Below are positions 14,256 through 32,708 of a stretch of DNA of 64,000 nucleotides, one piece after another. The DNA comes from Candidatus Dormiibacterota bacterium. Lineage in GTDB: Bacteria > Chloroflexota > Dormibacteria > Aeolococcales > Bog-877. Numbering within the stretch: the stretch's first letter is position 1; every line of letters starts with the position of its first letter. Position numbers and translations under genes: made by a program. The stretch covers positions 2,286,299 through 2,350,298 of the forward strand of contig OY969577.1 in assembly GCA_963701235.1 (NCBI GenBank), given 5' to 3'. Under the pieces are notes generated by a model, which searched no databases, had not been told where the DNA came from, and was given only the letters and a program-made list of their open reading frames with translations.

Positions 14256-15836
14256 TCAGCTGAGATCCTCGACGGTCTTCCAGAGCTGGGCGATGGAGTG
14301 CTTGGGGTCACGAGCGAGCAGGATCGGCACACCATTCTCAGCCGGCATGCAGTAGGCGCAGCGGGAGCGCCCGAGCACTCTGACTGAGGCAAAGCTTTGC
14401 CAGACCTGGGTCAGCGGCACCCCTACGGTGATCACCGAGCGCCCAGTGCAGTGCCCGGGGCCCCAGAAATAGAAGCTGTTGTCGCCGCTGATGGCCGGGG
14501 GTAGATGCTCGCCGCGCCCCAGAAAGTCCAGGGCCGCCGCCTCACCGTAGTTGGCAGCGAAGATGCAGGTGGACAGACGCTCCTGGCGGGGCAGCTCCCT
14601 GATCGCCCCCGCGACCCGGTGACTGAGCGAGACCCAGCCGAAGCGGTCGGCCAGCCACTGAGGCAACGGCGCGCCGCGATGCTGTTCCATCTGGGCTCCG
14701 GCGTCAGTGCCGAGGAAGCCGTAGGCGCTGGCGAAGGTGGCCGGGGGCAGGATGGGCATGGCGATGGGGGCCAGCAGGGCCCCGCTCAGCGCCATCAGGC
14801 CGAGGCAGAGGGTCCCCGGCCAGCGGGCTCCCAGGCGGCGGAGCTTGGGCGCCAGCCAAACCCCACCGGCGGCGAAGAGGAAGGGGTAGGCGGGAGCCAG
14901 ATAGTAGGACTTGGAGGGAGTGAGGCAGAACCACACGAAGAGCACGGCGAAGGCAAGGCCCAGCGCCCGAAGCCGGGGCCCGGCTCCGCCCCGCAGCAGC
15001 CAGACCTCCCCGCCCAGCCAGAGCGGGAGGGTGAGCGGGTTCATGACGTAGACCTGCTGGCCGACGAAGCTTAGGGGGGAGAGGCTGACCAGCGTCCCCA
15101 GATAGTTGTGCCAGTACGTGAGCGTGGGCCAGCCGTTCTGAAACTCCCAGACCAGGTACGGGGCCAGCCCGGCCCCGGCGATCCCCAGGGCCAGCCAGGG
15201 CCACCTGGTCTTGAACTCGGCCCGGGCCGGCGTCGCCAGCAGCCCCAGGGCCAGCGCGGCGAGGAAGAAAAGGATGGTGACCTTGGTGAGCATGCCCAGC
15301 CCGGCCACGGCCCCGATCAGGAGCCACAGCCGCGGCGTCGAACGGCGAAGCAGACGCACCAGGAGGTAGGCGATCAAGGTCCACCAGAGCTCGTCGAGCG
15401 AGTCCATCGAGAAGATCGACCCAGTGGCGAGGAAGGTCAGGCAGACCAGGCTGGCGCTGGCGGCCAGCGCCTGCGCCAGCTTTGAGCCCCCCAATTCCCG
15501 GGCGGTCAGCCCGGTGACCAGGATCAGCAGCGAGCTGGCCAGGGCGGGGATGACATGGAGGGTAAGCAAGGAGTCTCCGGCGAGCAGCCCCAACCCCCAG
15601 GCCAGGAAGGCCATCAGGAGCGGGAAGTCGACATAGCCCAGGGCCAGGTGGTGTCCGGCGGCGATGTAGTAGAGCTCGTCGCGGAAGTAGCCGTAGTTGG
15701 AGGCCACCAGCATGTGGCCGGCAAAGCCCAGGCCGGCCAGGCCTATCAGCATCAGCGAGCCGGAGGAGATCCGGTCGGCAAGACCGGCCAGAAGACGCCT
15801 GGGGTTGACGGTGGTGGCGAATGGGAGATCAGTCAT
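14256..15836 (-). CDS. Glycosyltransferase family 39 (ArnT/PMT-like) membrane protein
   Basis: YGYFRDELYY, GYVDFP, many TM segments, NYGEAAA..SGDNSF. Confidence 0.88.
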   Translation of the reverse strand: MTDLPFATTVNPRRLLAGLADRISSGSLMLIGLAGLGFAGHMLVASNYGYFRDELYYIAAGHHLALGYVDFPLLMAFLAWGLGLLAGDSLLTLHVIPALASSLLILVTGLTARELGGSKLAQALAASASLVCLTFLATGSIFSMDSLDELWWTLIAYLLVRLLRRSTPRLWLLIGAVAGLGMLTKVTILFFLAALALGLLATPARAEFKTRWPWLALGIAGAGLAPYLVWEFQNGWPTLTYWHNYLGTLVSLSPLSFVGQQVYVMNPLTLPLWLGGEVWLLRGGAGPRLRALGLAFAVLFVWFCLTPSKSYYLAPAYPFLFAAGGVWLAPKLRRLGARWPGTLCLGLMALSGALLAPIAMPILPPATFASAYGFLGTDAGAQMEQHRGAPLPQWLADRFGWVSLSHRVAGAIRELPRQERLSTCIFAANYGEAAALDFLGRGEHLPPAISGDNSFYFWGPGHCTGRSVITVGVPLTQVWQSFASVRVLGRSRCAYCMPAENGVPILLARDPKHSIAQLWKTVEDLS

Positions 15837-15967
15837 GTCCCCAGTCTTGCCCCCCGCTCAGCGCCTGTCGACCGCCCGACGGATGATTTTTTCCCCGCCC
15901 CCGGAATGACCCGGTCTCCTCCTCCAGGCGGATGTGCCTCGAGCGGGTCCCGGGCTACCATCGCGCC

Positions 15968-17137
15968 GTGACCGAAGCGCTCAGGAGGTGGCGCGCCCGC
16001 GGCGCCCCGGGGATGGACCTGGCCCTGGCCCTCCTGGTGGCCGCCGCGGCTCTGCTCCTGCTCTGGCTGCCTCCGGCGCCGCGTTCGGGGACGGGCCCGC
16101 TCTCGGTCGCCCTGCTGCTGGCGGCGTCGCTACCTCTGGCCTGGCGCCGCCGCTACCCCTTCCCGGTGTTCCTGGTGGTGGGCGGGGCCGCCCTGACCCA
16201 CGTCGGCTTCGGCTACCAGAACGACTTCCCGGTCACCTTCGCCGTGCTGGTGGGGCTCTTCACCGTCGCTCAGTACTCTCCCCGTCGGCTGGCCTGGCTG
16301 GCGGCGGCCCTGGTGGCGGTGCTGCTGCCGGTCAACTTCGGGCTCACCTGGTCCCACCAGCACCAGGTGGTCCTCTCCGACATCCCCTTCAACTACGGGC
16401 TCTTCGTCAGTGCCTGGGTGCTTGGCGACGACCTCCGCCAGCGCGGGCTGCGCTTCCAGGACCTGCAGGAGAGGGTCCTGCGCCGGGAGCGGGAAGAGGC
16501 CGACCGGCTGAGCCGGGCCGCCGACCAGGAGCGGCTTCGGATCTCCCGCGAGCTGCACGACGTGATCGCCCACAGCATCACCCTGATGGTGGTGCAGGCG
16601 GGTGGGGCGAGACGCATCGTCGAGTCCCAGCCAGGCGCAGCCGAGCAGGCGCTGCGGGAGATCGAGCGGGTGGGACGGGAGGCCCTGAGCGACATCCGAA
16701 GGCTGCTGGGACTGGCCCGCACTGCCCCCGGGGACGGCGTGGCGCCGCCCCAGCCCCGGCTGGCCGACCTGGAGCCCTTGCTGGAGCGCTGCCGGGGCGC
16801 CGGCATCGAGGTCAGCCTGCGCATCTCGGGCGAGCCGCGGCAGCTCAGGGATGGCATCGAGCTGTCCGCCTACCGGATCGTCCAGGAGGCGCTCACCAAC
16901 GCCATCAAACACAGCCGGGCCAGCTCGGTGGAGGTTGAGCTCGAGTACCTGGCCCGAGAGCTCAGGGTCCAGGTCCTGGACGACGGCCTGGCCCGCCCCG
17001 CCCCGGACGGCGGCGGTCAGGGCCTGGTCGGGATCCGCGAGCGAGCCGCCACCTTCGGCGGCTCGGCGGAGGCCGGTCCCCGCCCCGACGGCGGCTGGCT
17101 GGTCTCCGCCCGGCTGCCCCTCACTGGTGAGCTGTGA
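15968..17137 (+). CDS. Sensor histidine kinase (HisKA_3)
   Basis: ERLRISRELHDVIAH, YRIVQEALTNAIKH, DDG, GQGLVGIRER. Confidence 0.92.
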   Translation: MTEALRRWRARGAPGMDLALALLVAAAALLLLWLPPAPRSGTGPLSVALLLAASLPLAWRRRYPFPVFLVVGGAALTHVGFGYQNDFPVTFAVLVGLFTVAQYSPRRLAWLAAALVAVLLPVNFGLTWSHQHQVVLSDIPFNYGLFVSAWVLGDDLRQRGLRFQDLQERVLRREREEADRLSRAADQERLRISRELHDVIAHSITLMVVQAGGARRIVESQPGAAEQALREIERVGREALSDIRRLLGLARTAPGDGVAPPQPRLADLEPLLERCRGAGIEVSLRISGEPRQLRDGIELSAYRIVQEALTNAIKHSRASSVEVELEYLARELRVQVLDDGLARPAPDGGGQGLVGIRERAATFGGSAEAGPRPDGGWLVSARLPLTGEL

Positions 17138-17814
17138 TCCGGGTCCTGATCGCGGACGACCAGCCCCTGATGCGGGCCGGCCTGCGCCTGATCTTCGAGC
17201 CGGAGCGGGACATCGAGGTGGTCGCCGACGCCGGCAACGGCCGGGAGGCGGTCAGGCTCTGCCTGACCCTCCGCCCCGACGTCGCCATCTTGGACATCCG
17301 GATGCCGATCATGGACGGCATCGAGGCGACCTCCCAGGTGGCTGGCCGGGAGAGCACCCGGGTGCTGGTGCTGACCACCTTCGACGACGACGACTACGTC
17401 TACCGGGCCCTGCGGGCCGGTGCCAGCGGCTTTCTGCTCAAGGACGCCCCTCCCGAGCAGATCGTGGCCGGGGTCAGGACGGTGGCCGCCGGAGAGGCCC
17501 TGCTGGCTCCCGCCATCACCAGGAGCCTGATCGCCCAGTACACCGCCCGGACAAGGCCCGATCCCGGTCGAGAGCCGCCCTGGGCGGAGCTGACCGAGCG
17601 GGAGCTGGTGGTGCTGCGGCTGATGGCTCTGGGGCTGGCCAACTCCGAGATCGCCGAGCGCCTCCACCTCGGCGCCTCCACGGTCAAGACCCACGTCGGC
17701 CACATCCTCATGAAGCTGGACCTTCGGGATCGGGTCCAGGCGGTGGTCCTGGCCTACCAGGCGGGGCTGCTCCAGGATGGGGACCAGGAGGACGCCAGCT
17801 CGAGCCCGGGCTGA
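17134..17814 (+). CDS. NarL/LuxR family response regulator
   Basis: LIADDQ, LDIRMP, LTTFD, FLLKD, C-terminal HTH; GTGA overlap with the kinase. Confidence 0.95.
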   Translation: MIRVLIADDQPLMRAGLRLIFEPERDIEVVADAGNGREAVRLCLTLRPDVAILDIRMPIMDGIEATSQVAGRESTRVLVLTTFDDDDYVYRALRAGASGFLLKDAPPEQIVAGVRTVAAGEALLAPAITRSLIAQYTARTRPDPGREPPWAELTERELVVLRLMALGLANSEIAERLHLGASTVKTHVGHILMKLDLRDRVQAVVLAYQAGLLQDGDQEDASSSPG

Positions 17815-17831
17815 GCTGGGCGCGATCCGGC

Positions 17832-18323
17832 TCAGGCGCTGGAGGGGGCGGCCCTGGGGGCCCTCGAGATGGCCCGGAAGACGACCCAGCTGAAGCAGAA
17901 GACGGCGACGGCGAAGCTGGCCGCCATGATCATGGAGCTGAGGTCGTGGTGGTAGCTGAGGAAGGAGGCTCCGTTGAAGCCGGCCGCCAGCACCGCCAGC
18001 AGCCCCAGGACCGAGATCGCCCGCAGCCCCTGGCCGGGGGCCCGGAAGGCGGCCAGGACCAGGCGCAGAGCGGCCAGGAAGATGAGGAGTCCCAGGCCCG
18101 CATGGGCGGCGAGCAGGTTCCCGTGGGAGAGCCCCCAGAGCACGCTCTGGAAGGCTCTCAGGAAGTAGTCGGAGCCGCTGCTGCCGGGGTGCCGGCGAGG
18201 CAGGGCCACGTAGAGATTGAGCAGCATCCCCAGCAGGTACTGGACAAGGCAGAGAAGGACCAGGACCATGCCCAGCCGGCGCAGCCCGGTGATCCGGCTC
18301 AGAGCCCGATCCGGGTCGGTCAT
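17832..18323 (-). CDS. Hypothetical 4-TM membrane protein
   Basis: Four hydrophobic helices; divergent from marR. Confidence 0.7.
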   Translation of the reverse strand: MTDPDRALSRITGLRRLGMVLVLLCLVQYLLGMLLNLYVALPRRHPGSSGSDYFLRAFQSVLWGLSHGNLLAAHAGLGLLIFLAALRLVLAAFRAPGQGLRAISVLGLLAVLAAGFNGASFLSYHHDLSSMIMAASFAVAVFCFSWVVFRAISRAPRAAPSSA

Positions 18324-18348
18324 CCGCTACAATCCCCTCAACTTGAAA

Positions 18349-19113: not shown

Positions 19114-19580
19114 GCGCGAGGTTGGGGCGGGTGGGCCGTGGCGGGAGGCAGGGAGCGGAGGTGGGGTGTTTACGAAGTGGGGTTGGGAGGCGAGAGGGAG
19201 GCTCCCTTGGTGGCTGACGCCCCCAGGGGGGAGATTAGACATCCACGCAGGACCGCGCGAGTTTAAGAAGCAGTTCTTCTCTACGCGCGCGACACGCGGT
19301 TTAGGAATCCGCGTGCATCCGTCCATCTGGTGCTCTCCAGTAGTTTCGTAGTTCAGAGTAGGCGGTTCAGTCCGCCTGGTGTGGTCCTGTGGGAACCAGT
19401 TATGGGCGTTTGATTCCCAAGCAGCTCGGTAGGTCGCGAGGGCAACAGCGGCCTCGGCTTCCAATCCAGTGTCGGATGCTTGATCATCTTCGGGTGATCC
19501 CAGCGGGTGAGCTAGACCTCGCCTACCGCTCCACCCACGAGAGGACGCAGGTCGGCCGACGGCGAACGTATGATCGATGT

Positions 19581-19715
19581 ATGTCGATCGCCGTCACCCG
19601 CCAAAATCAACCATCTCCACGACCTCGACCTTTGGTCTCGACCACCCAACCCCTTGGGCCAGTTCGCGTGGCGCTAGTTCCAGGTCAGAGCCAGTCGTGG
19701 AGGAGTGATCGATGA
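19581..19715 (+). CDS. Possible 44-aa leader ORF of the defence operon
   Basis: ATG 6 nt after TATGAT (19569-19574); stop overlaps the next ATG (ATGA). Confidence 0.35.
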   Translation: MSIAVTRQNQPSPRPRPLVSTTQPLGPVRVALVPGQSQSWRSDR

Positions 19716-22700
19716 CTGCTCCCACGCTTGAGGAGCCGAGGACCAAGTCTCAGGACTCATCGACCGACCGCTACCGTAGGTTCCGGCCACGCCTCGTACT
19801 GGGCTACCAGCAAGACCTCCAGTCTCTCATCAAAGAACTGAGTGCGATGGGGACGGTGGAATCCTACGCGATTCTTGATGGTGCAATTACAAACCTAGAC
19901 GAGCGCCAGAGGACACTCGAATCCTACGGGCTGAGTGCACCTGACCTTGCTCCGACAATTCGCTACGGTGCCACTCTGCGCGTCCTGCGTGACCTCGTCA
20001 GCCAAGGCTGGACGATACGAGAAGACGATGAGGGAGTCATTCTTGATGCACCCGGGCGCGCGGCTATCCGGCTTGACGACCCCGAAACGGCCAAGCAGTC
20101 AATCCGACGGTCCTTCGCCTTTGCGCGCGAGGCACAACTCCGAGAGTTGCCAACCCTTCAATTCATCGAATCGGCAGAACGGAAGGGGGTGGCTCGTGTA
20201 TTCACCAGTGGAAGCGAACTGGCCAACCGGCTGACAGCCGAGGGTCCAGCGGCCATAACACCCGAACTTGAGGTGATTTCTCCCGGAGCCCGCGACGAGG
20301 CGACCGGACTGCTCCTCCAGGACGTTTGGCGCTACGCGAGGCACTTCTGGTCGATCCCCTACCAGAGCACTCCGGGACGCAATCTCTTTTACCTGATCCG
20401 CGACGCCGCCCTTCCTGAGCGACCATTGATCGGGATAGCTGCACTTGGTAATCCTGTCCTCGGTTTATCGAAGCGGGACGATCACTTTGGCTGGTCGGCC
20501 AATGGCCTAGAACGGCGTCTACCAGACCTCAGTGCTCGAAAGCGCCGAGAAGTCGCCGCCCACCTGGTTCGGGTTCTACGCGACGCAATCGAGTCAACAT
20601 TTTGTGCTGATCTTGGGTTACCGCCCGACCCCTTAGGTGAGGCGACCAAGACGGTTGCACTCCTTGAGGAGATCGAGCGTCGGAGCGCTGCGACCCGTCT
20701 CGCCAGGATCGATGCGGCCGGTGACGAGCGCGACTCGGACTACTTTCTGATACGCGAGGCACAAAATGTCGCCGACCACGGCGACATCGACTCGGTGGAC
20801 TGGGAGCAGGTAGCGTGTACTGCGCTGTACCGACGGAAGCGAGCTGGAACTCTCGGCGATTTATACAGGGCGCTGGCGACCTTGAGCCACCTCGACTTTA
20901 CTGACAGGGGTGGCGACTTGCCGCGGGCGCTGGCCGTGGCAGACGGGCGCCGGGCGATCGAGACTGCGCTACGTCGAATTAAGCAAGATGCTCTTGCCTC
21001 GAACGTTATGGAGTTGATCACCTGCGGTGCGGTGCCTCCGTACAACGGGGTACTCGGAGGCAAGCTGGTCGCGCTTCTGATGATGAGCCGTCAAGTAGTA
21101 GCCGATGTTGAAGAGCGATACAACGGTCGGGTGAGCATAATCGCCTCTGCCATGGCAGGCCGCCCCATCAAGCGCCCAGCCAAGCTGGCGTTGGTGACGA
21201 CTTCGAGTCTCTACGAAGCATATGGCTCAAGCCAGTACAACCGTCTCAAAGTGGACACCGCTGGTGGTCCGCTGGCATATCGCAAGGTGGCCAGAACTGA
21301 GAGTTTCGGGACGGTGCAATTCGCGCCCGACACGGTTCAAGCCCTCAACGACGTCGCACGCCATTCAGGCTCGAACAGGCGCGACATAAACAATCTTTTT
21401 GGTGAAGGCACGAGTCCTAAGCTCCGATTGCTCCGAGCGGGCCTTGAAGCGCTCGGGCTTGATTCCAGTAGCTTCCTACGCCACAACTCACGCCGAATCA
21501 TCTACGGCGTGTCGCTCTGCGCCAACACCGATGATGTCGTTTTGCGAATGAGTAGCCGCCCACAGTACCTGCTCCCTCCGGGAGCTGAAGGTACCACAGT
21601 GCTTATCGACTACTGGCGTGATCGCTGGCTTGCTAATAGGATCACTCGTCCTGATGTACTGGAGGGGCTACGCGGTGAGGAGTTTGAAGAGTTTCGCCTA
21701 AGTCGCGAGACTGAGCGGCTGACCATGGGTAGCGGGGGCAGCGGACGCCGAGCTGGGCGAGTAGGTAAGGGTGTTGATCTGACCATGACCGTCCAGCCCG
21801 AAGAGGATGGGACTCACACATTCATCGAGCGGCTCTACCGAAGCGCGAACAGCTATGCCGACCGGCTTAGTCCCGAGGAGTTGGAGTCAATCCACGTTGA
21901 CCTCGGAGTTGACGAATATATCGTCGCGCAGAGCGGGGCCGGCCGGCAGATCATCGTCACTGGCAATCCGGGAGATGGCAAGACCCATCTGATCGAGCGA
22001 ATTCGGGCTCAGCTCGAAGCGCATGGCGCACGGGTGATTACGGATGCCAATGCTTGTTCAGACGAGGAGATCTTGGACCAGTGGAGTGCCAGCAGAAAAG
22101 ATGGCAAACCCTTCGTGCTTGCGATCAACGAATGGCCGCTCTATGTTCTCCAACGCCTCGCCGCGCCGAGAGAGTTCACGCCGGTGACCGAGGCGCTTCG
22201 GCAGGTGACCTCGGCGCGATTCTTCGTGGAAGACCATCGCCCCGAGGACGTCAAAGACAATGTCGTCGTTATCGATCTCAGTCTTCGAAATCTACTCACA
22301 GTGAACGTCGTGGAGCGGGTTGTCGAGCGGCTCACTCAGGACCGCTTCTTCACAGCTATGAGCGCTGCTGATCCCGCGATCGCCAATCGAAACGCTCTGC
22401 GCGAGAAGCAGGTTAGCGAGAGGCTTGTTAAGCTGCTGGCGCTTGTCTCTACTAGGACCGGCCACGTCACGATGCGGCAACTTGTGGGCTTCGTCGCTTA
22501 CCTGATTACAGGCGGTCAATCCGCGACCAGTCGGGTACGAGCTGGCCAGGATGCGCTCGGATTCTCGTATTCGAACTTCGCCTTTGATGGCGGAGAGGGT
22601 GCGCTTTTTGGTGCGGTGCGCGCCGTCTTCGACCCAGCCGAAGTGACCCATCCGGATTGGGACAGCCGACTTTGGTTAGGCGATACTGACCCTCGCGACT

Positions 22701-23392
22701 GGCTTGGCAAGCCACCGCCGGGTCCGATGACCCTGAATGAGGCAGAGCGTGACAGCGCCTATCGTGCGATCAAGCGTCGATTTTTCTTTGAGCACGCCAA
22801 TGGGTTGGATCTACTCGAACTAGTCCCACGGGACGAGCACGAGTTTCAAGAGACGCTTCAATCGGGTCAGCGCGCCTCCGCGTCCGTGGTCCGTGAGTTG
22901 GTGCTGGCGCTCAACCGCTTCTTCGAGCCGGATTGCCCGGACTCCGAAATGGATCATGTTCAGCTGTGGCAGAGCCACCGCTACGATGTCCGCGCGCCGT
23001 CGACATTCGTCTCATTCCAAGCCTTGTCCTATCAGAATCTTCGGATCGAACCTCTGAAGACAGCCCCGTGGGTTGAAGCATGGCTGCCCGCCGAGCAGCT
23101 CGACCGGCGGAGCTTTGCTCTCGTGGCGAACTGGGAGACCAAAGACATTGCCGTAATCGAGATTGATCGCGAGTTGTTCTTGACATTGATCGAGGCTGAG
23201 CGAGGGCTCGGCAGGTCAAGCTGGTCTCGGACCGCGACACGACGGATTACCCGGTTTATTGACCGGATTCACGGCTCCGTCGAAAGGGAGGCCCCCATCG
23301 CGGACATCCGCATTCGTAACGTCGAGACCGACCTTGACGAAAGATTCGCGATCCAGCGTAACCCGGCGAGGTACCAGCTTTGGTCCCACTAG
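19712..23392 (+). CDS. DruA/DUF4338-like domain fused to a DptF-like P-loop ATPase
   Basis: PGRNLFYLIRD, CGAVPPYNGVLGGKLVA, TTSSLY..SSQYNRL (DruA-like); then GNPGDGKT, FVLAINEWPL, IDLSLRN; GGAGGAG SD. Confidence 0.75.
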   Translation: MTAPTLEEPRTKSQDSSTDRYRRFRPRLVLGYQQDLQSLIKELSAMGTVESYAILDGAITNLDERQRTLESYGLSAPDLAPTIRYGATLRVLRDLVSQGWTIREDDEGVILDAPGRAAIRLDDPETAKQSIRRSFAFAREAQLRELPTLQFIESAERKGVARVFTSGSELANRLTAEGPAAITPELEVISPGARDEATGLLLQDVWRYARHFWSIPYQSTPGRNLFYLIRDAALPERPLIGIAALGNPVLGLSKRDDHFGWSANGLERRLPDLSARKRREVAAHLVRVLRDAIESTFCADLGLPPDPLGEATKTVALLEEIERRSAATRLARIDAAGDERDSDYFLIREAQNVADHGDIDSVDWEQVACTALYRRKRAGTLGDLYRALATLSHLDFTDRGGDLPRALAVADGRRAIETALRRIKQDALASNVMELITCGAVPPYNGVLGGKLVALLMMSRQVVADVEERYNGRVSIIASAMAGRPIKRPAKLALVTTSSLYEAYGSSQYNRLKVDTAGGPLAYRKVARTESFGTVQFAPDTVQALNDVARHSGSNRRDINNLFGEGTSPKLRLLRAGLEALGLDSSSFLRHNSRRIIYGVSLCANTDDVVLRMSSRPQYLLPPGAEGTTVLIDYWRDRWLANRITRPDVLEGLRGEEFEEFRLSRETERLTMGSGGSGRRAGRVGKGVDLTMTVQPEEDGTHTFIERLYRSANSYADRLSPEELESIHVDLGVDEYIVAQSGAGRQIIVTGNPGDGKTHLIERIRAQLEAHGARVITDANACSDEEILDQWSASRKDGKPFVLAINEWPLYVLQRLAAPREFTPVTEALRQVTSARFFVEDHRPEDVKDNVVVIDLSLRNLLTVNVVERVVERLTQDRFFTAMSAADPAIANRNALREKQVSERLVKLLALVSTRTGHVTMRQLVGFVAYLITGGQSATSRVRAGQDALGFSYSNFAFDGGEGALFGAVRAVFDPAEVTHPDWDSRLWLGDTDPRDWLGKPPPGPMTLNEAERDSAYRAIKRRFFFEHANGLDLLELVPRDEHEFQETLQSGQRASASVVRELVLALNRFFEPDCPDSEMDHVQLWQSHRYDVRAPSTFVSFQALSYQNLRIEPLKTAPWVEAWLPAEQLDRRSFALVANWETKDIAVIEIDRELFLTLIEAERGLGRSSWSRTATRRITRFIDRIHGSVEREAPIADIRIRNVETDLDERFAIQRNPARYQLWSH

Positions 23393-24885
23393 ATACTAAG
23401 GAGCTCTTGGACTCTGTCTACGACGAGGAATTTGGATTCATGCTTACCAATTTCTCCATCAAACCGGTTCATGTTGCCAACGGCCTCGCGCGCTCACTGA
23501 CCAGCCGCACGTATGACACGACCGCCATAACTCGGCTGGTGCGCCGCTATGTTCGTCTGCAGAAGCTCGGCGTCGATGAGGAGCGCTACCCGAACGATGT
23601 GGTTATGGCAGACTACGCGGCAGCGTTCGCCAGTGACAGAGGGCACAAGCCGGATTCTCTCAAGGTAACGCGGCTCCGGTCGCTCGCTTTCGATGTTCTC
23701 GCGGCCGACGGCGCCGTCTTTACGGACCAGCAGTCCTTTACGCTTTCCAATGAGCGCTTCGTGACGAGCGACCCTTCTGACAACCGGATGGGTTTGTTCC
23801 TTTCCCGGTTGCTGACTGCTGAACCGACCGCCGATACCGCAGCCGCGACCTACTTGCGCGAGTTGCTCCAGTCGGAGACCGATCCGTGGACTACTATTGC
23901 TCTTCCGATGCTGGAATTCGGCGAGGTCCGGCCGGAGACGCCCAGCACCGAAGTCACTGGGCGAATCGCCAAGAGTGACCACCTCTTCGAGGCGTCGAAC
24001 CAACACCTGATCTCACCGACCATGCGTAACCTCCGCGATGCCTATGACCGCCTGGCTCGGTTCGAGCGTAATTCGGGATCAAAACTTAATTCGCTGCGGC
24101 GGCTGATGCTCTTCGGCTGCTTTGTCCTTCACGTGCACGCTGTGTCGCGATGGTCAGAGCGTGATCCGGCGGCGCCACAACCACCGATTCTATTCGATCT
24201 GTTCGATGGCACCGTCATCTCCGTCGGCGATGCGAGTCGCGCGACGCTACGGGCAGCAGGTGATGCGATCGAGGGTGTGATCCGATCGCGTTTCCACGAG
24301 TATGTCATCGGAGAATACGGCAACACGGCTAACCAGATCGAAGTTGCACTCGAAGCAGCCGAGATGAGCGACCGCATTCGGACGGCTTACCGGATGTACT
24401 TGGAAGGTGGCACAGATCCCGCCGACGCTCTCGCGCGAGCCATGGCCGAGGAAGCCCTCGATAGCAGACGTGAGACACCGATTGGAGCGCTTGTAGAACT
24501 CGGTCGTCGGGCTGGATTTCTTGCTCCATGGTCGAATCAGGGACGTGGTGGCAAGCTGCGCAAGCGCTACACGGCGACAGCTGAGTTTCTTGAGACTCTC
24601 GTCGCGGCCACGGTCGAGCCCGACTATCCAGTGGAGTTCCCCGAGTTCCTAGAGCGACTTCGCGACTACTTCGGCGTAGTTGTAGGTCGACCGGAGGATG
24701 ATTCGGTCATTCGTCACACTAACCTTCGGGACGAGGAGTGCTGGCCGGCGGTTGTTTCGATCAACGAAGAGGACCTGCGGCGCAACGTCGAAAAGTTCCG
24801 CGACCTTCTTGTTGAGTCCGGTTATGCCAAGGCATATGCCGACGGACGGACCATGGTCACGACCCGGCCGGAGGGTAACCTGTGA
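23380..24885 (+). CDS. Unknown 501-aa protein in the DptG position
   Basis: Overlaps both neighbours; C-terminal LVESGYAKAYADG resembles DptG-type C-termini (weak); start TTG 23380 or ATG 23440. Confidence 0.7.
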   Translation: MVPLDTKELLDSVYDEEFGFMLTNFSIKPVHVANGLARSLTSRTYDTTAITRLVRRYVRLQKLGVDEERYPNDVVMADYAAAFASDRGHKPDSLKVTRLRSLAFDVLAADGAVFTDQQSFTLSNERFVTSDPSDNRMGLFLSRLLTAEPTADTAAATYLRELLQSETDPWTTIALPMLEFGEVRPETPSTEVTGRIAKSDHLFEASNQHLISPTMRNLRDAYDRLARFERNSGSKLNSLRRLMLFGCFVLHVHAVSRWSERDPAAPQPPILFDLFDGTVISVGDASRATLRAAGDAIEGVIRSRFHEYVIGEYGNTANQIEVALEAAEMSDRIRTAYRMYLEGGTDPADALARAMAEEALDSRRETPIGALVELGRRAGFLAPWSNQGRGGKLRKRYTATAEFLETLVAATVEPDYPVEFPEFLERLRDYFGVVVGRPEDDSVIRHTNLRDEECWPAVVSINEEDLRRNVEKFRDLLVESGYAKAYADGRTMVTTRPEGNL

Positions 24886-27800
24886 GCGTGGACGTGGGAA
24901 GTACGCAGGCAGAAGTTCTGGCCGACTTGATCGCAGAGGGCCTTCGTCGACGCAAAGGTGCGGTTGGAGTGCTGGTGCGGGATGTGCCAGCGCCAGACCC
25001 GAATCGGCTTCTGGGTGCCCTGCTCGCACTTCGTAACGAAGGAATGGAACTGCGTGTAGCGTACCTGCGAGAAGGTGGCGAGGCAGCGGCAAAGGCGGTG
25101 GGCTTCGACACGGAGTTGATCTCGACTGAGGTCGAGCAAGCGGAGCGCTGGCGCAACGATCGTGAACTCAAGGCGCTGATCGTCGTTATCGCCCACGGTG
25201 ATGAGGCTAAGCTGTCCTCCCTGGAGGACTTCAGCGCGATCACGTCGCGTGAGCTGAAGAACATCCTGGTGCGTCGAGCCCTCGGTGGCGAGGCTGGGCA
25301 GAGTGAGGTCCAGTCGCGGTGGTGGCGACAACTGGACAATGACGACAGTATTGGACTGGCGCCACTAATCGACTATTACACGGCGTTGGAGGGCAAGACA
25401 GGGCACGAGTTCCTGGATGCTAGTAGTCGCGAGATTTATCATCTAGGACTGCTTCCCGACCCTGAGTTCTTTAACGATCCGAGCGAAGGGGCGGTCCGGC
25501 GGCGCCTGGAGCGAAACCGGGAGTTGGCCAGTCGGCTGCAGATGTTCAACGCCCAGGACCGGCGCCGGATCATGGAAGTGCTCAAGGACGAGACCGACCT
25601 CGATGTACGAAAGGAACTCCAGGAGGCACTGAGCCAGCTCGACCGCACTCGTATTGAGGGCGGGGATGGCCGGCCAGTGCCATTCCAGTCGGCCGATCGC
25701 CTGGTGCGTGCAAGGGCCAAGAAGACCACTCCAGACAGCCCCAAGCGAAACCCGACAGAAAAAGCGTCGAAAATCGCCGCTGAGGCCCTGGTTGATCGGG
25801 ACCGGGCCGAAGACGTGGAAACGCTCGTCGATCGACTACAGGAAGAACTTGACTCGCCCCTGGACGAAGGGCAGCTGCGCCCCAAGCCTATCCGAATAAG
25901 GCTTCCCGATGGCACCACCGAAGCGGTGGCTACTGCCAGGTTGGATCTGCTCAACATGCTGAGAAAGGTTATCGGTGAGGACACATACGGTGCCCTAATC
26001 AAGCTCGAAGCTCCAGATTTAGAGGGTGCACTGCGCAGATTCGATGTCGACCAACACCTCGTTGCGCGCTGGGAGGGAGAACGCATCGGCGAGTTGCTCC
26101 AACATCTCGCAATTGACGATGCCGGGGCGATTCTCCAGGAACGCTTCACTGCCTACCGCGAGGCACGCGCAGAGGTGCTGCCACTCCGCAGAACCTTGGC
26201 GGTCGAGCCACTCGTGGTCGCGGCGTATCCACCGACGCGACAAGCTCTACTCACCTTCATTAGGGCTTATGAGGATCTCAACCGAACGCTGCGGGAGAAC
26301 TACGAGACGCTCAATCAGCGCTTTGGGCAAGATGCCAACGAGATGCTAGGCCATCTTCTCCTTCTTGAGATAGTGGTGATTGACATCGGAGAGCAGACTT
26401 ACGCCATTGCGGCGCCGACGCATCCGCTCTATTTGTGGCACTACGCGCGGTACGCCGAGATTGTTGATGCCCAGCGTGACCGACTCAATGAGCGCGACCG
26501 GGTGCTGGTCACCCAGGCGGCGGAACAACTGCCTTTCTTTCTAACGTCAATCTTCGTCCCCACAACAGCAACAAGCGCCGCGATCAGTCTCGCTTATCTT
26601 GGGCGTCTTGGGCCGCTGGCTTACTTCGGTCCCGAGATGGAAGGCGGGGTGAGTGATGACGGCCTAGCGAGCGTCCGCTCACTGATAGAAGCGCAGTTGT
26701 CCTTGGAGTCTCACTCGCAGCGCGGCTACCGGCTGGGTCTGATTGATCCTCCCGATGCTGGTGCCTATCTCAGCATGCTCGCAGATCTAGCCGAAGAGGG
26801 AAAGTTGAGCGGCGCTCACCTGACGGTATACCGGCACCCGAAGCCGAAGGTCGGCGTCGAGCTTCGACTCGATGAGGACGAGGAGGACCGGATCGCCCGA
26901 GTTTTTCGTGCGATCACCCCGCACCGTCTCTTCACCTTTGAGGTACGCGACCTTCCGAGCCAACAGCTCGAGCCGCCCGATGAGGACCTTCACCATCTCG
27001 TCGTCAGCTTCGATCAGAGCACGGGCCACATGAATCCTGCGCGTGCGGCTCTGCATCCGATCCAGCCCCTAGCGGTACCACGGCGAATCGCGTACCGGGA
27101 GTTTCACAGGACCGTAGAACTTGAGCCGGCTTCTGGTGGGCCATTTGAGGACTATGACAAGCTCGTGCGGAAGTTGGCGCCCGTTGGTACATCCTACCTC
27201 GCTGTCCATCAACAAGATCAGCTACGTGAGCAACTCCACGGCATCGCAAGCCGTGTGCCATGGATGGCAGTGGCCGATCGTCAGGTGGACCGCGATTTGC
27301 GCATCGGTACGCTCCGGATCATGACCGCGCGTGACGGTGAGCGCGACGTTGCGGGCTTCGCACGGTCGACAGTTCCGTTCCGCCGTCCCCTGCGCGATGT
27401 GGTGCGCGAATACAACGCATACATCAGCAATGAGGACCTAGACGATCTGTTGGAGCAGTTGAGCGATCTGCTGGACGCGGGCATCCTCAATCTTCGTCCA
27501 GATGCGTCCGGAAGGACCAACTTCAATCGGATCAAGGGCCTACTCGGAACGTTGATCGCTGCGCGCTGGTTTCGCAAGAGTGGTGACGATTCTACCCGCC
27601 TCCTGATAAGCCTGGATGGGGCCGATGCACGGCGATGGCTCCATCTAAGTGACGATCCGCTGCGGGCCGACCTTGTCGGCTTCACCTGGACAAACGACCA
27701 CTGCACCGTAAGCGTCATCGAGGTAAAGGCGGTCCAGGCGAGGGGAGTTGAATATGCAGTCGTCGAAGGTGTAGCTACTGGCCCAGCGATTGAGCAAATG

Positions 27801-29438
27801 CTCTCGACGAGGCGGCTACTCGAACAGGTCTTCTTGGGAGACCGAGCCGATGAACTGATCACCACCCCGGCGCGTCGAGAGGTTTTACGCGAGCACCTTT
27901 ACCGAGAATTGACCAAGGGCGCCTACTCCCCGGATGAGCGCAAGCTGTGGGCTGACCGCCTGCAGCGTCTGCTCGACGGGTCGGTCAAGACCAATCTGCG
28001 CTGTCACCTCATTGACGTCAGGCTGGGTGTCGACTCGACCTCCTTGCGCGACGTGAAGGTAGCCGCACATGACGAGGGGCTCGTGGTTCCGGTTGAGGTG
28101 ACTGAGCTAAACGAGCGCCAGATCGAAGTCCTGATTCCCTCGGAACCACCAGAGGAAGAGGACGAAATCGACATAAAAGACGACTCGGAGCCGCCTATGG
28201 AGGAGGAGCAACTGGGGCCAGATGACGAAGGTCCAGAGTCACCGCCACCTCAACCATCTGGTGAAAGCACGGAACGACCGAGTCCAGAGGTGGTGGTGAG
28301 CGCCGAGCAATCCGTCGCGACAGCCGGAGCTGCGGAGCGACCGCGAGCCCTGCTAGGTACCGCGCCAGGCGAATATGGGAAGCTCCGCGAGATTTGGTTC
28401 GACCCGCAGCAGCCCGACGATCGCTTGCCCAATCCTCACTTATTGATTACGGGCGAGACTGGTAGTGGAAAGACACAGGTCACCAAGGCGTTGCTCAGCG
28501 AACTCCGGCCGTTCGGCATTCCCGCATTAATCCTCGACTTCAAGGACGACTACTCCGACCCGGAGTACGCCGAGACGGAGAGCTTTAGCGTTTACGACCC
28601 GAGTGTGCAGAGCCTCCCATTCAACCCCCTGGCACCGTCGGTAGATCCAAGGAGCGGTCGCGTCAACCCTACCCACCACCTTCATCAGCTCACAGATATC
28701 ATCAAGCGTGTTTATCGACTGGGCGACCAGCAGGCGTATCGCCTGCGTGAGGCGATAAAGTCGGTCTACGAAGAGGCTGGGCTTCCTTCCCGATCATTTG
28801 CCCCTGAGGTCGGCCAGGCGTACCCGCCCTTTGAGGCTGTGGAGAAGGCTCTATCAGAAGACAAGGAGAACCAGGCCCTGCTTGGTCGGCTGTCGCCGAT
28901 CTTCGACTTGGAGCTTTTCAGTTCGGGTGCTCAGGTCACGGACTTCGCAGCGATCGCGGAACAGAGTACTGTCATTCGGCTCGCGCAGCTCCCTGGCGAC
29001 GAAGTAAAGAACTCCGTTGCAGAGTTCTTTTTGATGGCAATGTACAACTATCTTATCCGCCAGCCGCAGTCTCATCACCTAGCTCAGCTCGCAGTGCTAG
29101 ACGAGGCATGGCGTCTTGTCGAATCCCCGTTCTTGGAGCCGTTGATGCGTGAGGGCCGCGCCTTCGGTCTAGGGGTACTCATCGCTTCTCAGTTTCCAAC
29201 GGACCTTCCTTCAGCTGTCGCCGGCTCGACGGCGACCAAGCTGTATTTCAGCCAGACAAACGTTGAACAGGTCCGCGACATTCAGCGCACGATCCTAGGG
29301 AAGACAAATGGAGCTGACGCAGACCACCTTGCGAGCATCATGCGCGGGCTACCACCGCTCACCTGCGTTCTCTACAGCAAACAGTTTCCGCGATTTGTGC
29401 GCGTCACAATCAACCCTTATTTCGGGCGACAGCACTGA
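24882..29438 (+). CDS. Large PD-(D/E)xK nuclease plus HerA/FtsK (DUF87) ATPase, DptH-like
   Basis: RADLVG...IEVKA; acidic Pro-rich linker; HLLITGETGSGKT, LDFKDDY, VLDEAW, REGRAFG, ASQ. Confidence 0.8.
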   Translation: MSVDVGSTQAEVLADLIAEGLRRRKGAVGVLVRDVPAPDPNRLLGALLALRNEGMELRVAYLREGGEAAAKAVGFDTELISTEVEQAERWRNDRELKALIVVIAHGDEAKLSSLEDFSAITSRELKNILVRRALGGEAGQSEVQSRWWRQLDNDDSIGLAPLIDYYTALEGKTGHEFLDASSREIYHLGLLPDPEFFNDPSEGAVRRRLERNRELASRLQMFNAQDRRRIMEVLKDETDLDVRKELQEALSQLDRTRIEGGDGRPVPFQSADRLVRARAKKTTPDSPKRNPTEKASKIAAEALVDRDRAEDVETLVDRLQEELDSPLDEGQLRPKPIRIRLPDGTTEAVATARLDLLNMLRKVIGEDTYGALIKLEAPDLEGALRRFDVDQHLVARWEGERIGELLQHLAIDDAGAILQERFTAYREARAEVLPLRRTLAVEPLVVAAYPPTRQALLTFIRAYEDLNRTLRENYETLNQRFGQDANEMLGHLLLLEIVVIDIGEQTYAIAAPTHPLYLWHYARYAEIVDAQRDRLNERDRVLVTQAAEQLPFFLTSIFVPTTATSAAISLAYLGRLGPLAYFGPEMEGGVSDDGLASVRSLIEAQLSLESHSQRGYRLGLIDPPDAGAYLSMLADLAEEGKLSGAHLTVYRHPKPKVGVELRLDEDEEDRIARVFRAITPHRLFTFEVRDLPSQQLEPPDEDLHHLVVSFDQSTGHMNPARAALHPIQPLAVPRRIAYREFHRTVELEPASGGPFEDYDKLVRKLAPVGTSYLAVHQQDQLREQLHGIASRVPWMAVADRQVDRDLRIGTLRIMTARDGERDVAGFARSTVPFRRPLRDVVREYNAYISNEDLDDLLEQLSDLLDAGILNLRPDASGRTNFNRIKGLLGTLIAARWFRKSGDDSTRLLISLDGADARRWLHLSDDPLRADLVGFTWTNDHCTVSVIEVKAVQARGVEYAVVEGVATGPAIEQMLSTRRLLEQVFLGDRADELITTPARREVLREHLYRELTKGAYSPDERKLWADRLQRLLDGSVKTNLRCHLIDVRLGVDSTSLRDVKVAAHDEGLVVPVEVTELNERQIEVLIPSEPPEEEDEIDIKDDSEPPMEEEQLGPDDEGPESPPPQPSGESTERPSPEVVVSAEQSVATAGAAERPRALLGTAPGEYGKLREIWFDPQQPDDRLPNPHLLITGETGSGKTQVTKALLSELRPFGIPALILDFKDDYSDPEYAETESFSVYDPSVQSLPFNPLAPSVDPRSGRVNPTHHLHQLTDIIKRVYRLGDQQAYRLREAIKSVYEEAGLPSRSFAPEVGQAYPPFEAVEKALSEDKENQALLGRLSPIFDLELFSSGAQVTDFAAIAEQSTVIRLAQLPGDEVKNSVAEFFLMAMYNYLIRQPQSHHLAQLAVLDEAWRLVESPFLEPLMREGRAFGLGVLIASQFPTDLPSAVAGSTATKLYFSQTNVEQVRDIQRTILGKTNGADADHLASIMRGLPPLTCVLYSKQFPRFVRVTINPYFGRQH

Positions 29439-29553: not shown

Positions 29554-29943
29554 CTAAGCCGCTGGTGCGGCCGCGGCGCTCTTGGAGAGCGCCTGAAGCA
29601 GGTTGGCGATGATCTCGACGGTCCGTCGAGTGGTTCCATCAGTGGCCTGCCACTGACGGCTCTGGAGCCGACCCTCGACGTAGACGAGGCGGCCTTTGCC
29701 AAGGCAGCTGGCCGCGAAGTCAGCGAGTTGTCCCCAGAGGACCACATTGTGGAACTCTGCATGGCTCTTGCCGTTGGTCGCGAGACGGACGTTCGCGACG
29801 TGCTTGCCTGAGCCGGTCTCCCCAAGTTCGGGGGCGGCGACGAGGCGTCCGATGAAGGTTACCTGGTTCACTGAGTCTCCCCGAGACTGGCGCTCCTCCG
29901 TGGTGAGGGCCTTCGTCGTGCCATTGGTCTTGTTGCTGCGCAT
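29554..29943 (-). CDS. ssb: Single-stranded DNA-binding protein (short, MGE type)
   Basis: VNQVTFIGRL, FHNVVLWG, KGRLVYVEGRLQSRQW; AGGAGG SD; no acidic tail. Confidence 0.88.
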   Translation of the reverse strand: MRSNKTNGTTKALTTEERQSRGDSVNQVTFIGRLVAAPELGETGSGKHVANVRLATNGKSHAEFHNVVLWGQLADFAASCLGKGRLVYVEGRLQSRQWQATDGTTRRTVEIIANLLQALSKSAAAAPAA

Positions 29944-30195
29944 CTCTGCACCTCCTGTTGAGTGGATCGATGCCTCGGTGATAAACGGGCCAGGCGCCGA
30001 GCGGAACAGGCCCGAGCGAAGCGAGCACGCCTTGGGCCTTGAAGCGGATGGGAGCCGGTCTGCTACCGGATGGCGGTCGAAGACGATCCACATGACGTCC
30101 AAGGAGGGGCTGCGCAGCTCTGACCAGGGCAGCACGAGACAGATCGCGGGGCGGCAAGTCTGGGCTGGGCTCCAGGGAAACCCTCGCGAGGAAGT

Positions 30196-31353
30196 CTATG
30201 GAGCTGGATGAGCGGGCGCTGGCGGTGCATCGGAGTCCTGCCAGAACTGTACCGTCAGGGACGTAGCGAGCATCACGGCTATTAGAGCATTGTCACGCGA
30301 GAAAACTCCTGCCTGCCCTACAGCGTGTGCCGTAGCGTGCCGAGCAAAGTGATCGGGAATGGGGTCGCCCTGCGCTGGCCGCCATTGAGCAAATCCTAAG
30401 AACAGCGGTCGCAGCACGAGATTCTCAACCGCGACTCGAAGGGGGAGGTCATCGTAGGGCTCGGACGCGCGCTGTGCCGCTTCTTTGCGACCTTTGTCGC
30501 CAAGAATGGCCAGTACGATGCTGTCGAGGATGTTACCGGCGTGGGATTGGGCGGGCGCTTCTAGACCGGGTTGACGTAAGGCGCTAATCGCGCTCCGGCA
30601 CTGATCCGCCCAGTCGTGCGCAATGTGGGTAAGAAGAGCCTCGCAATCGTCAAGGGCCTCCTCAAAGTGCTCTGACAGGATTCGCTGGCGTTCTTCCTTC
30701 GTCTTGGCCTTGACGAGACTATGAACAATGGCGGCTCGTGGCACCCATGCCAGGGGCAAGCCTTCCTCAAGAGCCAGTCGGGCAACCTCCTCCAGCTCAT
30801 CACCCTCTCGCAGGTTCTCAGGTAGCCAATTGTCGAGGTCACCAGTAAGCACCCCCCAGTCGATCCCCTGGAGAACCGAAGAAAGTTGCTCGGTTAGTGC
30901 CGAATAGTTGAGGGTCCTTGCGATTGAGGCGAACGTATCGCGTTGAATCTGGCTTGCTACCGAGAACGCTGCGTTGTTGAGGATGAGTTCGTTCGCGCGA
31001 GTGATCGCCGAGAAGTCGAGAGACTTGGAGAGTTGCTCCAACCAAGTGTTGTCGATTCGAGCTATTGGAGCCAGGCTTGCCGCTGTTGTAATCGCGCGAG
31101 TAGCGTCTTGAAGGGCCCCAAAGTTGACCGATGAAAACACTGTCTTCGCAAGATTGGCATGTATTGCGCTGATATCGGCCATGGCACTCTGCGCAGCGCT
31201 GAGAGCGCTGAAATCGAAGCTAGCTAATAAGCGTTGTTGCTGGCTGAAAGCGTCGAGCGCGGCCTCTAATGGGTTAGTCGGCTCGTCGTCGTCAGAGGGA
31301 ACGTATTCAAACCCGCCGTCGGTTGGTTCCGTGTCGTCCTTTGGCCGGGTCAT
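30196..31353 (-). CDS. Hypothetical protein with C-terminal RxxxxH (HEPN-like) motif
   Basis: Ala/Ser-rich N-part, WLPENL, C-terminal FARHATAHAVG. Confidence 0.65.
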   Translation of the reverse strand: MTRPKDDTEPTDGGFEYVPSDDDEPTNPLEAALDAFSQQQRLLASFDFSALSAAQSAMADISAIHANLAKTVFSSVNFGALQDATRAITTAASLAPIARIDNTWLEQLSKSLDFSAITRANELILNNAAFSVASQIQRDTFASIARTLNYSALTEQLSSVLQGIDWGVLTGDLDNWLPENLREGDELEEVARLALEEGLPLAWVPRAAIVHSLVKAKTKEERQRILSEHFEEALDDCEALLTHIAHDWADQCRSAISALRQPGLEAPAQSHAGNILDSIVLAILGDKGRKEAAQRASEPYDDLPLRVAVENLVLRPLFLGFAQWRPAQGDPIPDHFARHATAHAVGQAGVFSRDNALIAVMLATSLTVQFWQDSDAPPAPAHPAP

Positions 31354-31418
31354 TCGTTGAGTATGAGCCGATTCCAAAGCGTTCGGAAGACCGCGAGAAG
31401 CAGCGAGGGAGGGGCGAC

Positions 31419-32237: not shown

Positions 32238-32708
32238 TTTCTGGCCCTCCTTTGTAGGTGCTGATGCGATGCACCCGACAAGCCAGGGCAAGTCCGAGCG
32301 GAATGGCCCCGACGGGCATCGCCCGGAGTGCACTTCAGGGCTTGCAGCTCATAGGACGTAGCTCTGCCAGGGTGACAACAGAGCAGAGGCCCCACACGGA
32401 GGAGCCAACGAGTCCACCACTCCGTTCCGAGGTCACCTCCTCGCATCGAATGGGATGCTGCTCACGTCCCGAACGGCAGTGACGGAGACTCCCTGTCCTT
32501 GCCTACCGCGCCCGACGCCAGCTCTCGGACAGATAGACGCCACGAGTCACCGGCAACGCGAGGAAGAGGAGGAGATCAGATCAGGAGAAGGTCTTGTGGA
32601 TCCCAAGCCTCGGTCGTGTTCGGACTTAACTGATTAGCCGAAGATCACCGCGAGTTAGTGGGTCTCTGACTCGAAGGTGTTCGTTGCGATCCGCGTATCA
32701 TCCGAGAC

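Follow-up and report, generated by a model that had tools for sequence, protein, structure and literature searches.

Restriction modules of the FGH type pair elsewhere with the DNA-modifying enzymes of Dnd and Ssp systems, and a recent survey lists 'a GNAT domain (annotated as DUF4338 in Pfam)' among the N-terminal fusions of DndF (Rakesh, Aravind and Krishnan, NAR 2024, PMC10853773). The same family, DruA, supplies the first defining gene of Druantia type I (DruABCDE), for which a preprint describes a PacBio 'm6A' signal at CAGCTGNC seen only in expressing cells; as set out there, the system is without a methylase domain and the gene behind the signal is not identified (bioRxiv 10.1101/2024.04.14.589459). 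A GNAT that acts on bases in double-stranded DNA is known from phage Mu, where Mom transfers glycine from Gly-tRNA(Gly) to the N6 of adenine and requires R111, S124, R151 and a helix-turn-helix-like insertion at 175-209 (Silva et al., PMC13219725). Here we describe a DruA domain fused to a DptF/DndF-like protein in a Candidatus Dormiibacterota bacterium (GenBank assembly GCA_963701235.1, contig OY969577.1), within a stretch of 64,000 nucleotides (positions 2,286,299 to 2,350,298, forward strand; hereafter the window). The instance is not new as an architecture, because the GNAT(DUF4338)-DndF fusion has already been printed. What is new is the constancy of the DruA link in this DptF clade, a DruA(+GHKL) cassette common to DptFGH-like and Druantia-I modules with repeated switching between them, orphan copies of that cassette, the structural tie to Mom and the synthesis with the Druantia I sequencing signal.

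The domain lies in the first gene of a single + strand operon of three overlapping genes:

19712..23392, + strand: ORF1, a DruA (GNAT-fold) domain fused to a DptF/DndF-like P-loop protein; 1226 aa, ATG start
23380..24885, + strand: ORF2, DptG/SspG-like, 501 aa; SspG match at E 5e-11, kept beside DptF in related loci
24882..29438, + strand: ORF3, DptH/DndH-like, 1518 aa; DndH match at E 2e-35, plus HerA/FtsK-type ATPase families

Residues 84-655 of ORF1 match the PADLOC DruA model PDLC00001 (E 6e-135, 449 bits), and Pfam PF14236 (DruA/DUF4338) scores 112.5 bits against a cut-off of 27 (E 2.8e-32), bearing out a first-pass annotation that had placed a DUF4338 domain at 19712..21720. This interval encloses the DruA part of ORF1, since nucleotide 21720 corresponds to residue 670, inside the Gly-rich linker ahead of the DptF-like P-loop. 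The same annotation had the domain joined to a restriction-type ATPase, and it is: the P-loop follows in the same protein, and the DptG-like and DptH-like genes come next. The DruA match is far beyond chance, because a phmmer search with residues 1-670 against 1.84 billion representatives returned 1551 relatives at E<=1e-3, 426 of them at E<=1e-30. Among the best 150 relatives, 24 are of fused-protein size (1180-1303 aa) and the rest mostly 600-780 aa.

We tentatively propose, at somewhat less than an even chance, that DruA is a putative writer of a non-methyl DNA self mark, which the DptG- and DptH-like proteins would read in order to restrict. According to this model, DruA would be a catalytically competent GNAT acyl- (or aminoacyl-) transferase acting on DNA and would place its mark on the host's own DNA. 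A variable winged-helix-like N-terminus and a helical insert would help in site choice, and the adjoining NTPase would assist, this being the DptF P-loop here and a GHKL ATPase at other loci. The DptG/DptH-like partners, with their DNA-binding domains, apparently dead methylase fold, probably live PD-(D/E)xK nuclease and HerA/FtsK motor, would then read the mark and cut or pump DNA without it. We infer DNA as the substrate, acyl-CoA or aminoacyl-tRNA as the donor, and the reading step; the chemistry would be either Mom-like at N6 of adenine or NAT10/TmcA-like at N4 of cytosine. A broader form of the proposal, possible but well short of even, is that DruA is a host-side counterpart of Mom, a portable writer that would modify DNA bases at specific sites and so mark self for two unrelated restriction machines, DptFGH-like and Druantia type I.

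The anatomy of the domain was determined from an alignment of the query with 93 of its 150 best phmmer relatives, mostly those of 600-920 aa (94 sequences, 29-56% identity), and from an AlphaFold (AF2) model of residues 1-670 built on that alignment (pLDDT 93.1, pTM 0.91). Its parts, and the linker that follows, are:

19769..20116, + strand: variable N-terminal region, residues 20-135; column entropy about 3.0-3.3
20243..20497, + strand: GNAT core, N-terminal half, residues 178-262; strands 184-188, 225-231 and 239-246, invariant P184, R210, R223, R230 and R255
20498..21001, + strand: helical insertion within the GNAT core, residues 263-430 (about 160-168 residues); partly variable
21002..21577, + strand: GNAT core, C-terminal half, residues 431-622; invariant Y444, K451, L452, T497 and Y509
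21713..21781, + strand: Gly/Arg-rich linker, residues 668-690, with MGSGGSG at 672-678; it connects DruA and DptF parts that are two separate genes in many relatives

Column entropy is low in the GNAT core (1.0-2.0 over residues 181-260 and 430-600), against about 3.0-3.3 in the N-terminus, variable by this measure over residues 1-135, and in the insertion, whose variable stretches are residues 271-360 and 391-405. Thirteen positions are invariant (D94, P184, R210, R223, R230, R255, R377, Y444, K451, L452, T497, Y509 and W635), many more arginines are nearly so, and the most conserved stretches of the C-terminal half (strand 432-440, helix 444-456, strand 494-499, helix 539-551, strand 596-601) are ITCGAVPPYNGVLGGK (436-451) and LVTTSSLY (494-501). 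The pattern of conservation is enzyme-like.

The first defining gene of Druantia type I belongs to the same family as the window domain, which differs in being a long form, with the N-terminal region and the insert, and in being fused to DptF. The 409-aa DruA of a classical DruABCDE operon (Pseudomonas putida plasmid pKF715A) matches residues 124-273 and, directly after, 431-617 (E 2e-23 and 3e-13) and lacks the helical insertion; the N-terminal region is likewise missing from short canonical DruA. Because the short protein aligns to the GNAT core alone, that core is the universal part of DruA, and the winged-helix-like N-terminus and the insert of about 160 residues are additions of the long form. 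The likeness to a winged helix is read from the modelled secondary structure of residues 76-112 (helix 76-97, hairpin 101-112, conserved D94, L95 and W100).

These features bear on whether DruA is an enzyme at all. It could be a non-catalytic or regulatory GNAT-shaped binder that senses invader DNA or a small molecule and turns on the DptFGH-like nuclease-motor while leaving host DNA unmarked, which we consider decidedly unlikely. The variable N-terminal and insert regions could serve as invader-facing surfaces, no canonical acetyl-CoA loop was recognised by eye, and multi-pronged sensing has been proposed for stand-alone DndFGH (PMC10853773). However, the strongest conservation falls in the parts that form the GNAT active-site cleft (around strand 4/helix 3 and strand 5, where Y444, K451, T497 and Y509 are invariant), and such a pattern across the 94 aligned sequences suits an enzyme better than a sensor that evolves fast.

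The fold was examined with an exhaustive structural aligner, which compared the DruA model with 48,161 PDB representatives and returned 54 chains at Z>=8. The best 50 all align on residues 178-622 and have GNAT-type folds (Z 8.0-9.6): 45 are titled acetyl- or acyltransferase, GNAT, or acyl-homoserine-lactone or N-acyl-amino-acid synthase, and the titles of the other five (9fqr_Xg, 7mq8_NJ, 7uci_A, 3eo4_A, 1wk4_A) name no fold. First among the 50 is phage Mu Mom (8bv8_B; Z 9.6, rmsd 3.7, 169 of 202 residues aligned, model 178-612 on chain 20-231). In the model, helices at 569-589 sit between helix 4 and strand 6. The DruA domain is thus predicted to have a GNAT fold, as the first-pass annotation had supposed for DUF4338 in proposing a comparison with Mom and GNAT structures, and the same assignment has been printed (Rakesh et al., 2024). 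All of the structural evidence comes from predicted models, and Z scores of 8-10 speak to fold, not function. Other routes were silent: Foldseek with the whole 670-residue model gave only noise in the PDB, topped by membrane transporters at E 0.08; DruA had no match at E<=10 when its sequence or profile was run against the PDB; and a look-alike search of the ESM Atlas reached at best 0.76 (PF22559, GNAT-phage-like), under the noise level of the tool.

Two nucleic-acid-modifying GNATs are instructive for comparison. Mom (PF25680) likewise joins extra helical elements to a GNAT fold, is the top structural match to DruA, and sets the precedent that a GNAT can modify bases in double-stranded DNA; it differs in size and setting, being a phage counter-defence protein of 231 aa where DruA, at 400-700 aa, is part of host defence. 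A chain of the human small-subunit (SSU) processome, 7mq8_NJ, which we take to be NAT10, aligns over 181 residues at Z 8.3. RNA cytidine acetyltransferases of this TmcA/NAT10 type resemble DruA in coupling a GNAT with a fused NTPase to work on a base in nucleic acid, but differ in domain order, NTPase class and RNA substrate, and their score is tied with those of generic GNATs.

Two further sets of DruA relatives were noted. Long-form DruA genes occur on haloarchaeal plasmids (plasmid matches in Natribaculum, Natrialbaceae, Haloplanus, Halalkaliarchaeum and Halobaculum), so that the family crosses domains on mobile DNA. In BFVD, three uncharacterised giant-virus proteins match the DruA model, from Faunusvirus (A0A3G4ZXG3, 469 aa, E 1e-9), Yasminevirus (A0A5K0UAJ3, 1260 aa, E 6e-7) and Dasosvirus (A0A3G4ZRA1, 1157 aa, E 7e-3), the latter two of fused-protein length.

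A GNAT fold also suits a different task, in which DruA would be a toxic or back-up effector that acylates proteins, or aminoacyl-tRNAs in the manner of TacT/AtaT-type toxins, and so stops growth (abortive infection) once the complex detects an invader or is itself inhibited. We hold this to be unlikely but a live rival: it is the published reading of the architecture, in which N-terminal domains of DndF are suicidal co-effectors directed against self molecules (PMC10853773), most characterised GNATs among the structural matches acetylate proteins or small molecules, and the conserved core suggests catalysis. On the other hand, the many invariant arginines and the winged-helix-like N-terminus would point to nucleic acid. 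The distribution of the domain also counts against such an effector, as follows.

Linkage was first measured from the DptF side. Metagenome contigs were scanned with a DptF Walker-A pattern, a procedure blind to DruA, and 214 relatives were confirmed; the 80 most similar to the query DptF were kept. DruA is fused to DptF in 71 of these loci and encoded directly upstream in 6; the remaining three (L097, L127, L156) have only 104-430 nt of upstream DNA. DruA is therefore present in 77 of the 77 loci with enough upstream DNA, down to 27% identity in the DptF core, and none of these informative loci holds a DptF of this clade without DruA. Stand-alone DndFGH systems with a GNAT(DUF4338)-DndF protein share with the window the lack of dndABCDE nearby; they are described by Rakesh et al. 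as an occasional N-terminal variant, whereas here the link to DruA is constant in the DptF clade, and a constant rather than occasional domain argues against a back-up effector. The DptF core was also sought in 400 other genomes sampled from the phylum, two of them of the same genus, where no relative was found at E<=1e-10; this search says nothing about DruA-less DptF, as there was no relative of either kind there, and the system is rare by this measure.

Species genomes were scanned with DruA itself, and the 80 best of 541 relatives were retained. Their arrangements are as follows, the DruD/DruE labels having been checked by PADLOC on 53 ORFs from 9 loci:

7 of the best 80 genome loci: DruA fused to DptF
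21 of the best 80: DruA directly upstream of dptFGH (L049 included)
4 of the best 80: DruA beside dptFGH in another orientation
29 of the best 80: DruA beside Dru(980)-DruD-DruE(-nuclease) modules, in the same, convergent or divergent orientation
5 of the best 80: DruA with neither module, complete 10-kb flanks
14 of the best 80: DruA on truncated contigs

The four loci in another orientation include Micromonospora-type ones, whose DptF, DptG and DptH are the closest genome relatives of those in the window. A GHKL ATPase gene (PF13589) accompanies DruA, mostly immediately upstream, in 44 of the 53 loci where DruA is neither fused to nor co-oriented with dptF; among the 27 fused or co-oriented loci (L049 being outside this grouping) such a gene occurs only in L009, which holds a second DruA. 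A FastTree of 81 DruA domains requires a switch between DptFGH and DruE partners at least four times over its 60 labelled rows; this was a quick tree, and the row of the window sits on a long branch with unsure placement. Orphan DruA, with or without the GHKL ATPase and with neither module within 10 kb, was found in L054, L060, L068 and L080, among housekeeping or mobile genes.

The GHKL ATPase gene is about 500-550 aa with a weak PADLOC MzaB match (for example L010:8269-9804, and in L054, L060 and L080), and the two-gene GHKL-DruA cassette also occurs without a restriction module within 10 kb. At L079, the fifth locus with neither module, the order GHKL-DruA-Dru980 is followed by genes for an SNF2-type helicase (1018 aa; 15291-18347) and a NERD-helicase (19347-21083), not by DruD/DruE, and this pair may be a third kind of DruA partner module.

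These arrangements bear on both rivals. A cassette that stands without either restriction module is odd for a trigger-dependent toxin, as is the position of the same domain at the head of classical Druantia I operons, and orphan cassettes would be sensors without an effector to turn on. The constant link, the sharing with Druantia-I modules and the occurrence alone suggest that DruA has a core role, possibly that of a writer.

The features of the partner proteins are:

21782..23389, + strand: DptF/DndF-like core of ORF1, residues 691-1226; Walker A GNPGDGKT at 751-758 (nt 21962-21985), AINE at 804-807
26640..27374, + strand: class I methyltransferase-fold domain of ORF3, residues about 587-831; Z 11.8-9.5
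27669..27728, + strand: PD-(D/E)xK nuclease motif of ORF3; D930 ... E947-V-K949, each in >=90% of 41 sequences
28326..29438, + strand: HerA/FtsK-type ATPase of ORF3; Walker A GETGSGKT at 1191-1198, VLDEAW at 1405-1410

The published description of DndF (PMC10853773) is of a P-loop kinase-like core in which Walker A is canonical, Walker B carries an Asn and the helical lid is large. ORF1 is a P-loop protein from about residue 740 (PADLOC SspF, E 3.5e-14), and its DptF part answers to that description in its GNPGDGKT Walker A and in the Asn at the Walker-B place (AINE, 804-807), invariant in 17 sequences. ORF3 matches DUF87/HerA and DndH over residues 1149-1440, as expected of the restriction module of DndFGH/DptFGH, although against the PADLOC Ssp/Dnd models the F, G and H proteins of the window give weak matches (E 3.5e-14, 5e-11 and 2e-35).

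Residues 480-1040 of ORF3 were folded with 40 relatives (pLDDT 87.3). All 50 structural rows for the methylase-fold domain are methyltransferase or GRAS folds, with Foldseek E values down to 5e-5; DPPDAG stands in place of the Gly-rich S-adenosylmethionine (SAM) loop and FDQ (family consensus FDP) follows strand 4, so that both the Gly-rich loop and a full (D/N/S)PP(Y/F/W) motif are missing. In the model the domain looks catalytically inactive, in agreement with the 'inactive DAM' described for DndH (Rakesh et al., PMC10853773). The neighbouring nuclease looks live, because D930, E947 and K949 are each kept in at least 90% of the 41 sequences. With an inactive-looking methylase fold beside a conserved nuclease motif, the operon appears to be a cutter and motor with no active methylase.

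Nor was another writer found nearby. The first-pass annotation had noted that no methylase or dnd genes are adjacent, and this holds for the 49 window ORFs of at least 150 aa when searched with Pfam. Across the genome (2.49 Mb, one contig, 92% complete), models for DndC (TIGR03183), DndE (PF08870) and SspB (PF13182) found nothing, the last two being weak negatives since the control for each matched nowhere; a phosphorothioate (PT)-dependent Dnd system was set aside on these searches, no dnd or ssp gene having appeared in them. The three DNA-methylase-family matches in the genome lie at 0.63, 0.86 and 1.47 Mb, at least 0.8 Mb from the window (2.29-2.35 Mb). Around 112 DptF-bearing loci, just two kinds of flanking gene exceed 6 loci: an SfsA-like nuclease, present at 34, and integrases, present at 13. 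No methylase family recurs there, although the survey used BLAST clustering, which may split diverse methylases, and so speaks to recurrence and not to each locus. No antitoxin-like partner recurs in the same flanks, a further point against a toxic effector.

The SfsA-like gene, of about 230 aa, encodes an OB fold and a nuclease domain and lies directly 3' of dptH in its 34 loci, mostly of gut and Bacillota types (for example L013:19491-20204); it is absent from the window and may be a fifth component of that subgroup.

Canonical Druantia I can be set aside for this locus. Six-frame searches of the window found no relative of DruD, DruE, Dru980 or GHKL, and one DruE query found none in the genome. 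Type IIG and Type I restriction-modification and PT-based Dnd/Ssp offer a parallel: they too combine target-recognition parts, an NTP-driven motor and a separable candidate marking module in cis, and here the candidate writer cassette is found by itself at some loci, whereas no reader-cutter was observed by itself. They differ in that the window system is without an active methyltransferase or PT machinery, its candidate writer being a GNAT.

Taken together, we favour a self-mark writer because DruA is an enzyme-like GNAT with nucleic-acid-style conservation, because it is indispensable to a nuclease-motor that seems to have neither methylase activity nor a dnd partner, and because its cassette swaps between two restriction-type modules. 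DruE-type helicases pair elsewhere with methylases or deazaguanine; that both module types, there and in the FGH modules, pair with DNA-modifying enzymes lends support. DruA standing alone where the cutter was not seen to do so is an asymmetry like that of restriction-modification, Mom provides a chemical precedent, and the unexplained adenine signal of Druantia I would find a source. TmcA/NAT10 are ATP-coupled GNATs, which the always-adjacent NTPase of DruA recalls, and an N4-acetyl-cytosine-type mark is therefore as open as a Mom-type adenine.

Several points weigh against this proposal, and first against kinship with Mom. With the second match at Z 9.5 and the fiftieth at 8.0, Mom's Z of 9.6 ties it with ordinary acetyltransferases instead of singling it out. 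DruA shares neither sequence nor profile similarity with Mom: hhalign of DruA, whole or as GNAT halves, against Mom or a Mom alignment (Mom from the Mu record plus 52 of 120 listed relatives, 852 having been collected; 53 sequences) gave a probability of 0.5-1.2%, and the strongest local alignment, at E about 0.1, joins parts of the fold that do not correspond. A Mom HMM found nothing in the whole genome at E<=0.01, and PF25680 is absent from the Pfam matches of ORF1 at that threshold. The Mom resemblance suggested by the first-pass annotation therefore stands for the fold, where Mom ranks first, and falls for the family, membership of which is ruled out at the sequence and profile level. In GNATs, strand 4 and helix 3 are linked by a loop for the acetyl-CoA pyrophosphate, Q/R-x-x-G-x-G/A; by eye, the corresponding junction of DruA, VPPYNGVLGGK (441-451), has a conserved GG but no exact Q/RxxGxG/A. 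As to linkage, both samples were ranked by similarity to the query, the metagenome one being the top 80 of 214 with 134 weaker relatives outside the count, and the linkage suits an essential sensor or effector equally well. N6-acyl-adenine is described as chemically unstable (PMC13219725). The 'm6A' signal comes from a single preprint, in which it is not assigned to DruA and belongs to a system with the short DruA form (bioRxiv 10.1101/2024.04.14.589459). Rakesh et al. read the fusion as a suicidal, protein-targeting co-effector or back-up effector, and argue that DndFGH stand alone with no need of a modification module (PMC10853773), so that the premise of the first-pass annotation, that DptFGH needs a self mark, is contested.

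Finally, the target of the GNAT could be the invader: it would acylate incoming DNA or phage-specific nucleotides, flagging them for the nuclease-motor or blocking their use. The fold similarity to DNA-modifying Mom applies here too, and DndF, to whose P-loop the GNAT is fused, has been proposed to sense phage-derived modified nucleotides (PMC10853773). Such action would, however, need a means of sparing host DNA, and none is apparent; the Druantia I signal reported in the preprint was on host DNA of uninfected cells (bioRxiv 10.1101/2024.04.14.589459). We regard an invader target as improbable, and marking of self as the better account of DruA.

Full-text searches of the literature found no paper tying the Druantia I signal to the GNAT fold of DruA or to Mom, and none combining Druantia with GNAT; 'Mom' occurs 0 times in PMC10853773, and DruA, DUF4338 and GNAT each 0 times in the YprA-helicase preprint. 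Druantia type I and dnd-less DptFGH systems are widespread. Should DruA prove a writer, one enzyme family would lie behind self-recognition in both, and the known self marks, methylation, phosphorothioation and 7-deazaguanine, would gain a base modification made by a GNAT. This would be a new chemical class of restriction-modification, one that would account for the methylase-less 'm6A' of Druantia I, and Mom-like chemistry would be present in cellular genomes, possibly miscalled as m6A by sequencing pipelines. If DruA is not a writer, the obligate presence of a GNAT must be explained otherwise, by an effector or sensor role, and the printed view of an occasional back-up effector would need revising for this clade.

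The surroundings of the operon were also surveyed. G+C content falls from about 0.70 to about 0.60 near 19.5 kb of the window. A Shedu SduA gene lies about 3 kb downstream of the operon (32709-33869, + strand; SduA_N 1e-28, SduA_C 4e-23), which makes the stretch a small defence island. Between them, on the - strand, are an SSB gene (29554-30135), a 432-aa ORF without a family (30196-31494) and an ArdC-N plus M78-peptidase gene (31419-32333), and farther away a tyrosine integrase gene (2135-3085, - strand); these four look like remnants of a conjugative or integrative element. Elsewhere in the window, a FAD_binding_4 ORF (53599-54360, + strand) and a FAD-oxidase_C plus 4Fe-4S ORF (54321-56564, + strand) overlap by 40 nt in different frames, and are either a split or frameshifted FAD-linked oxidase or two separate genes.

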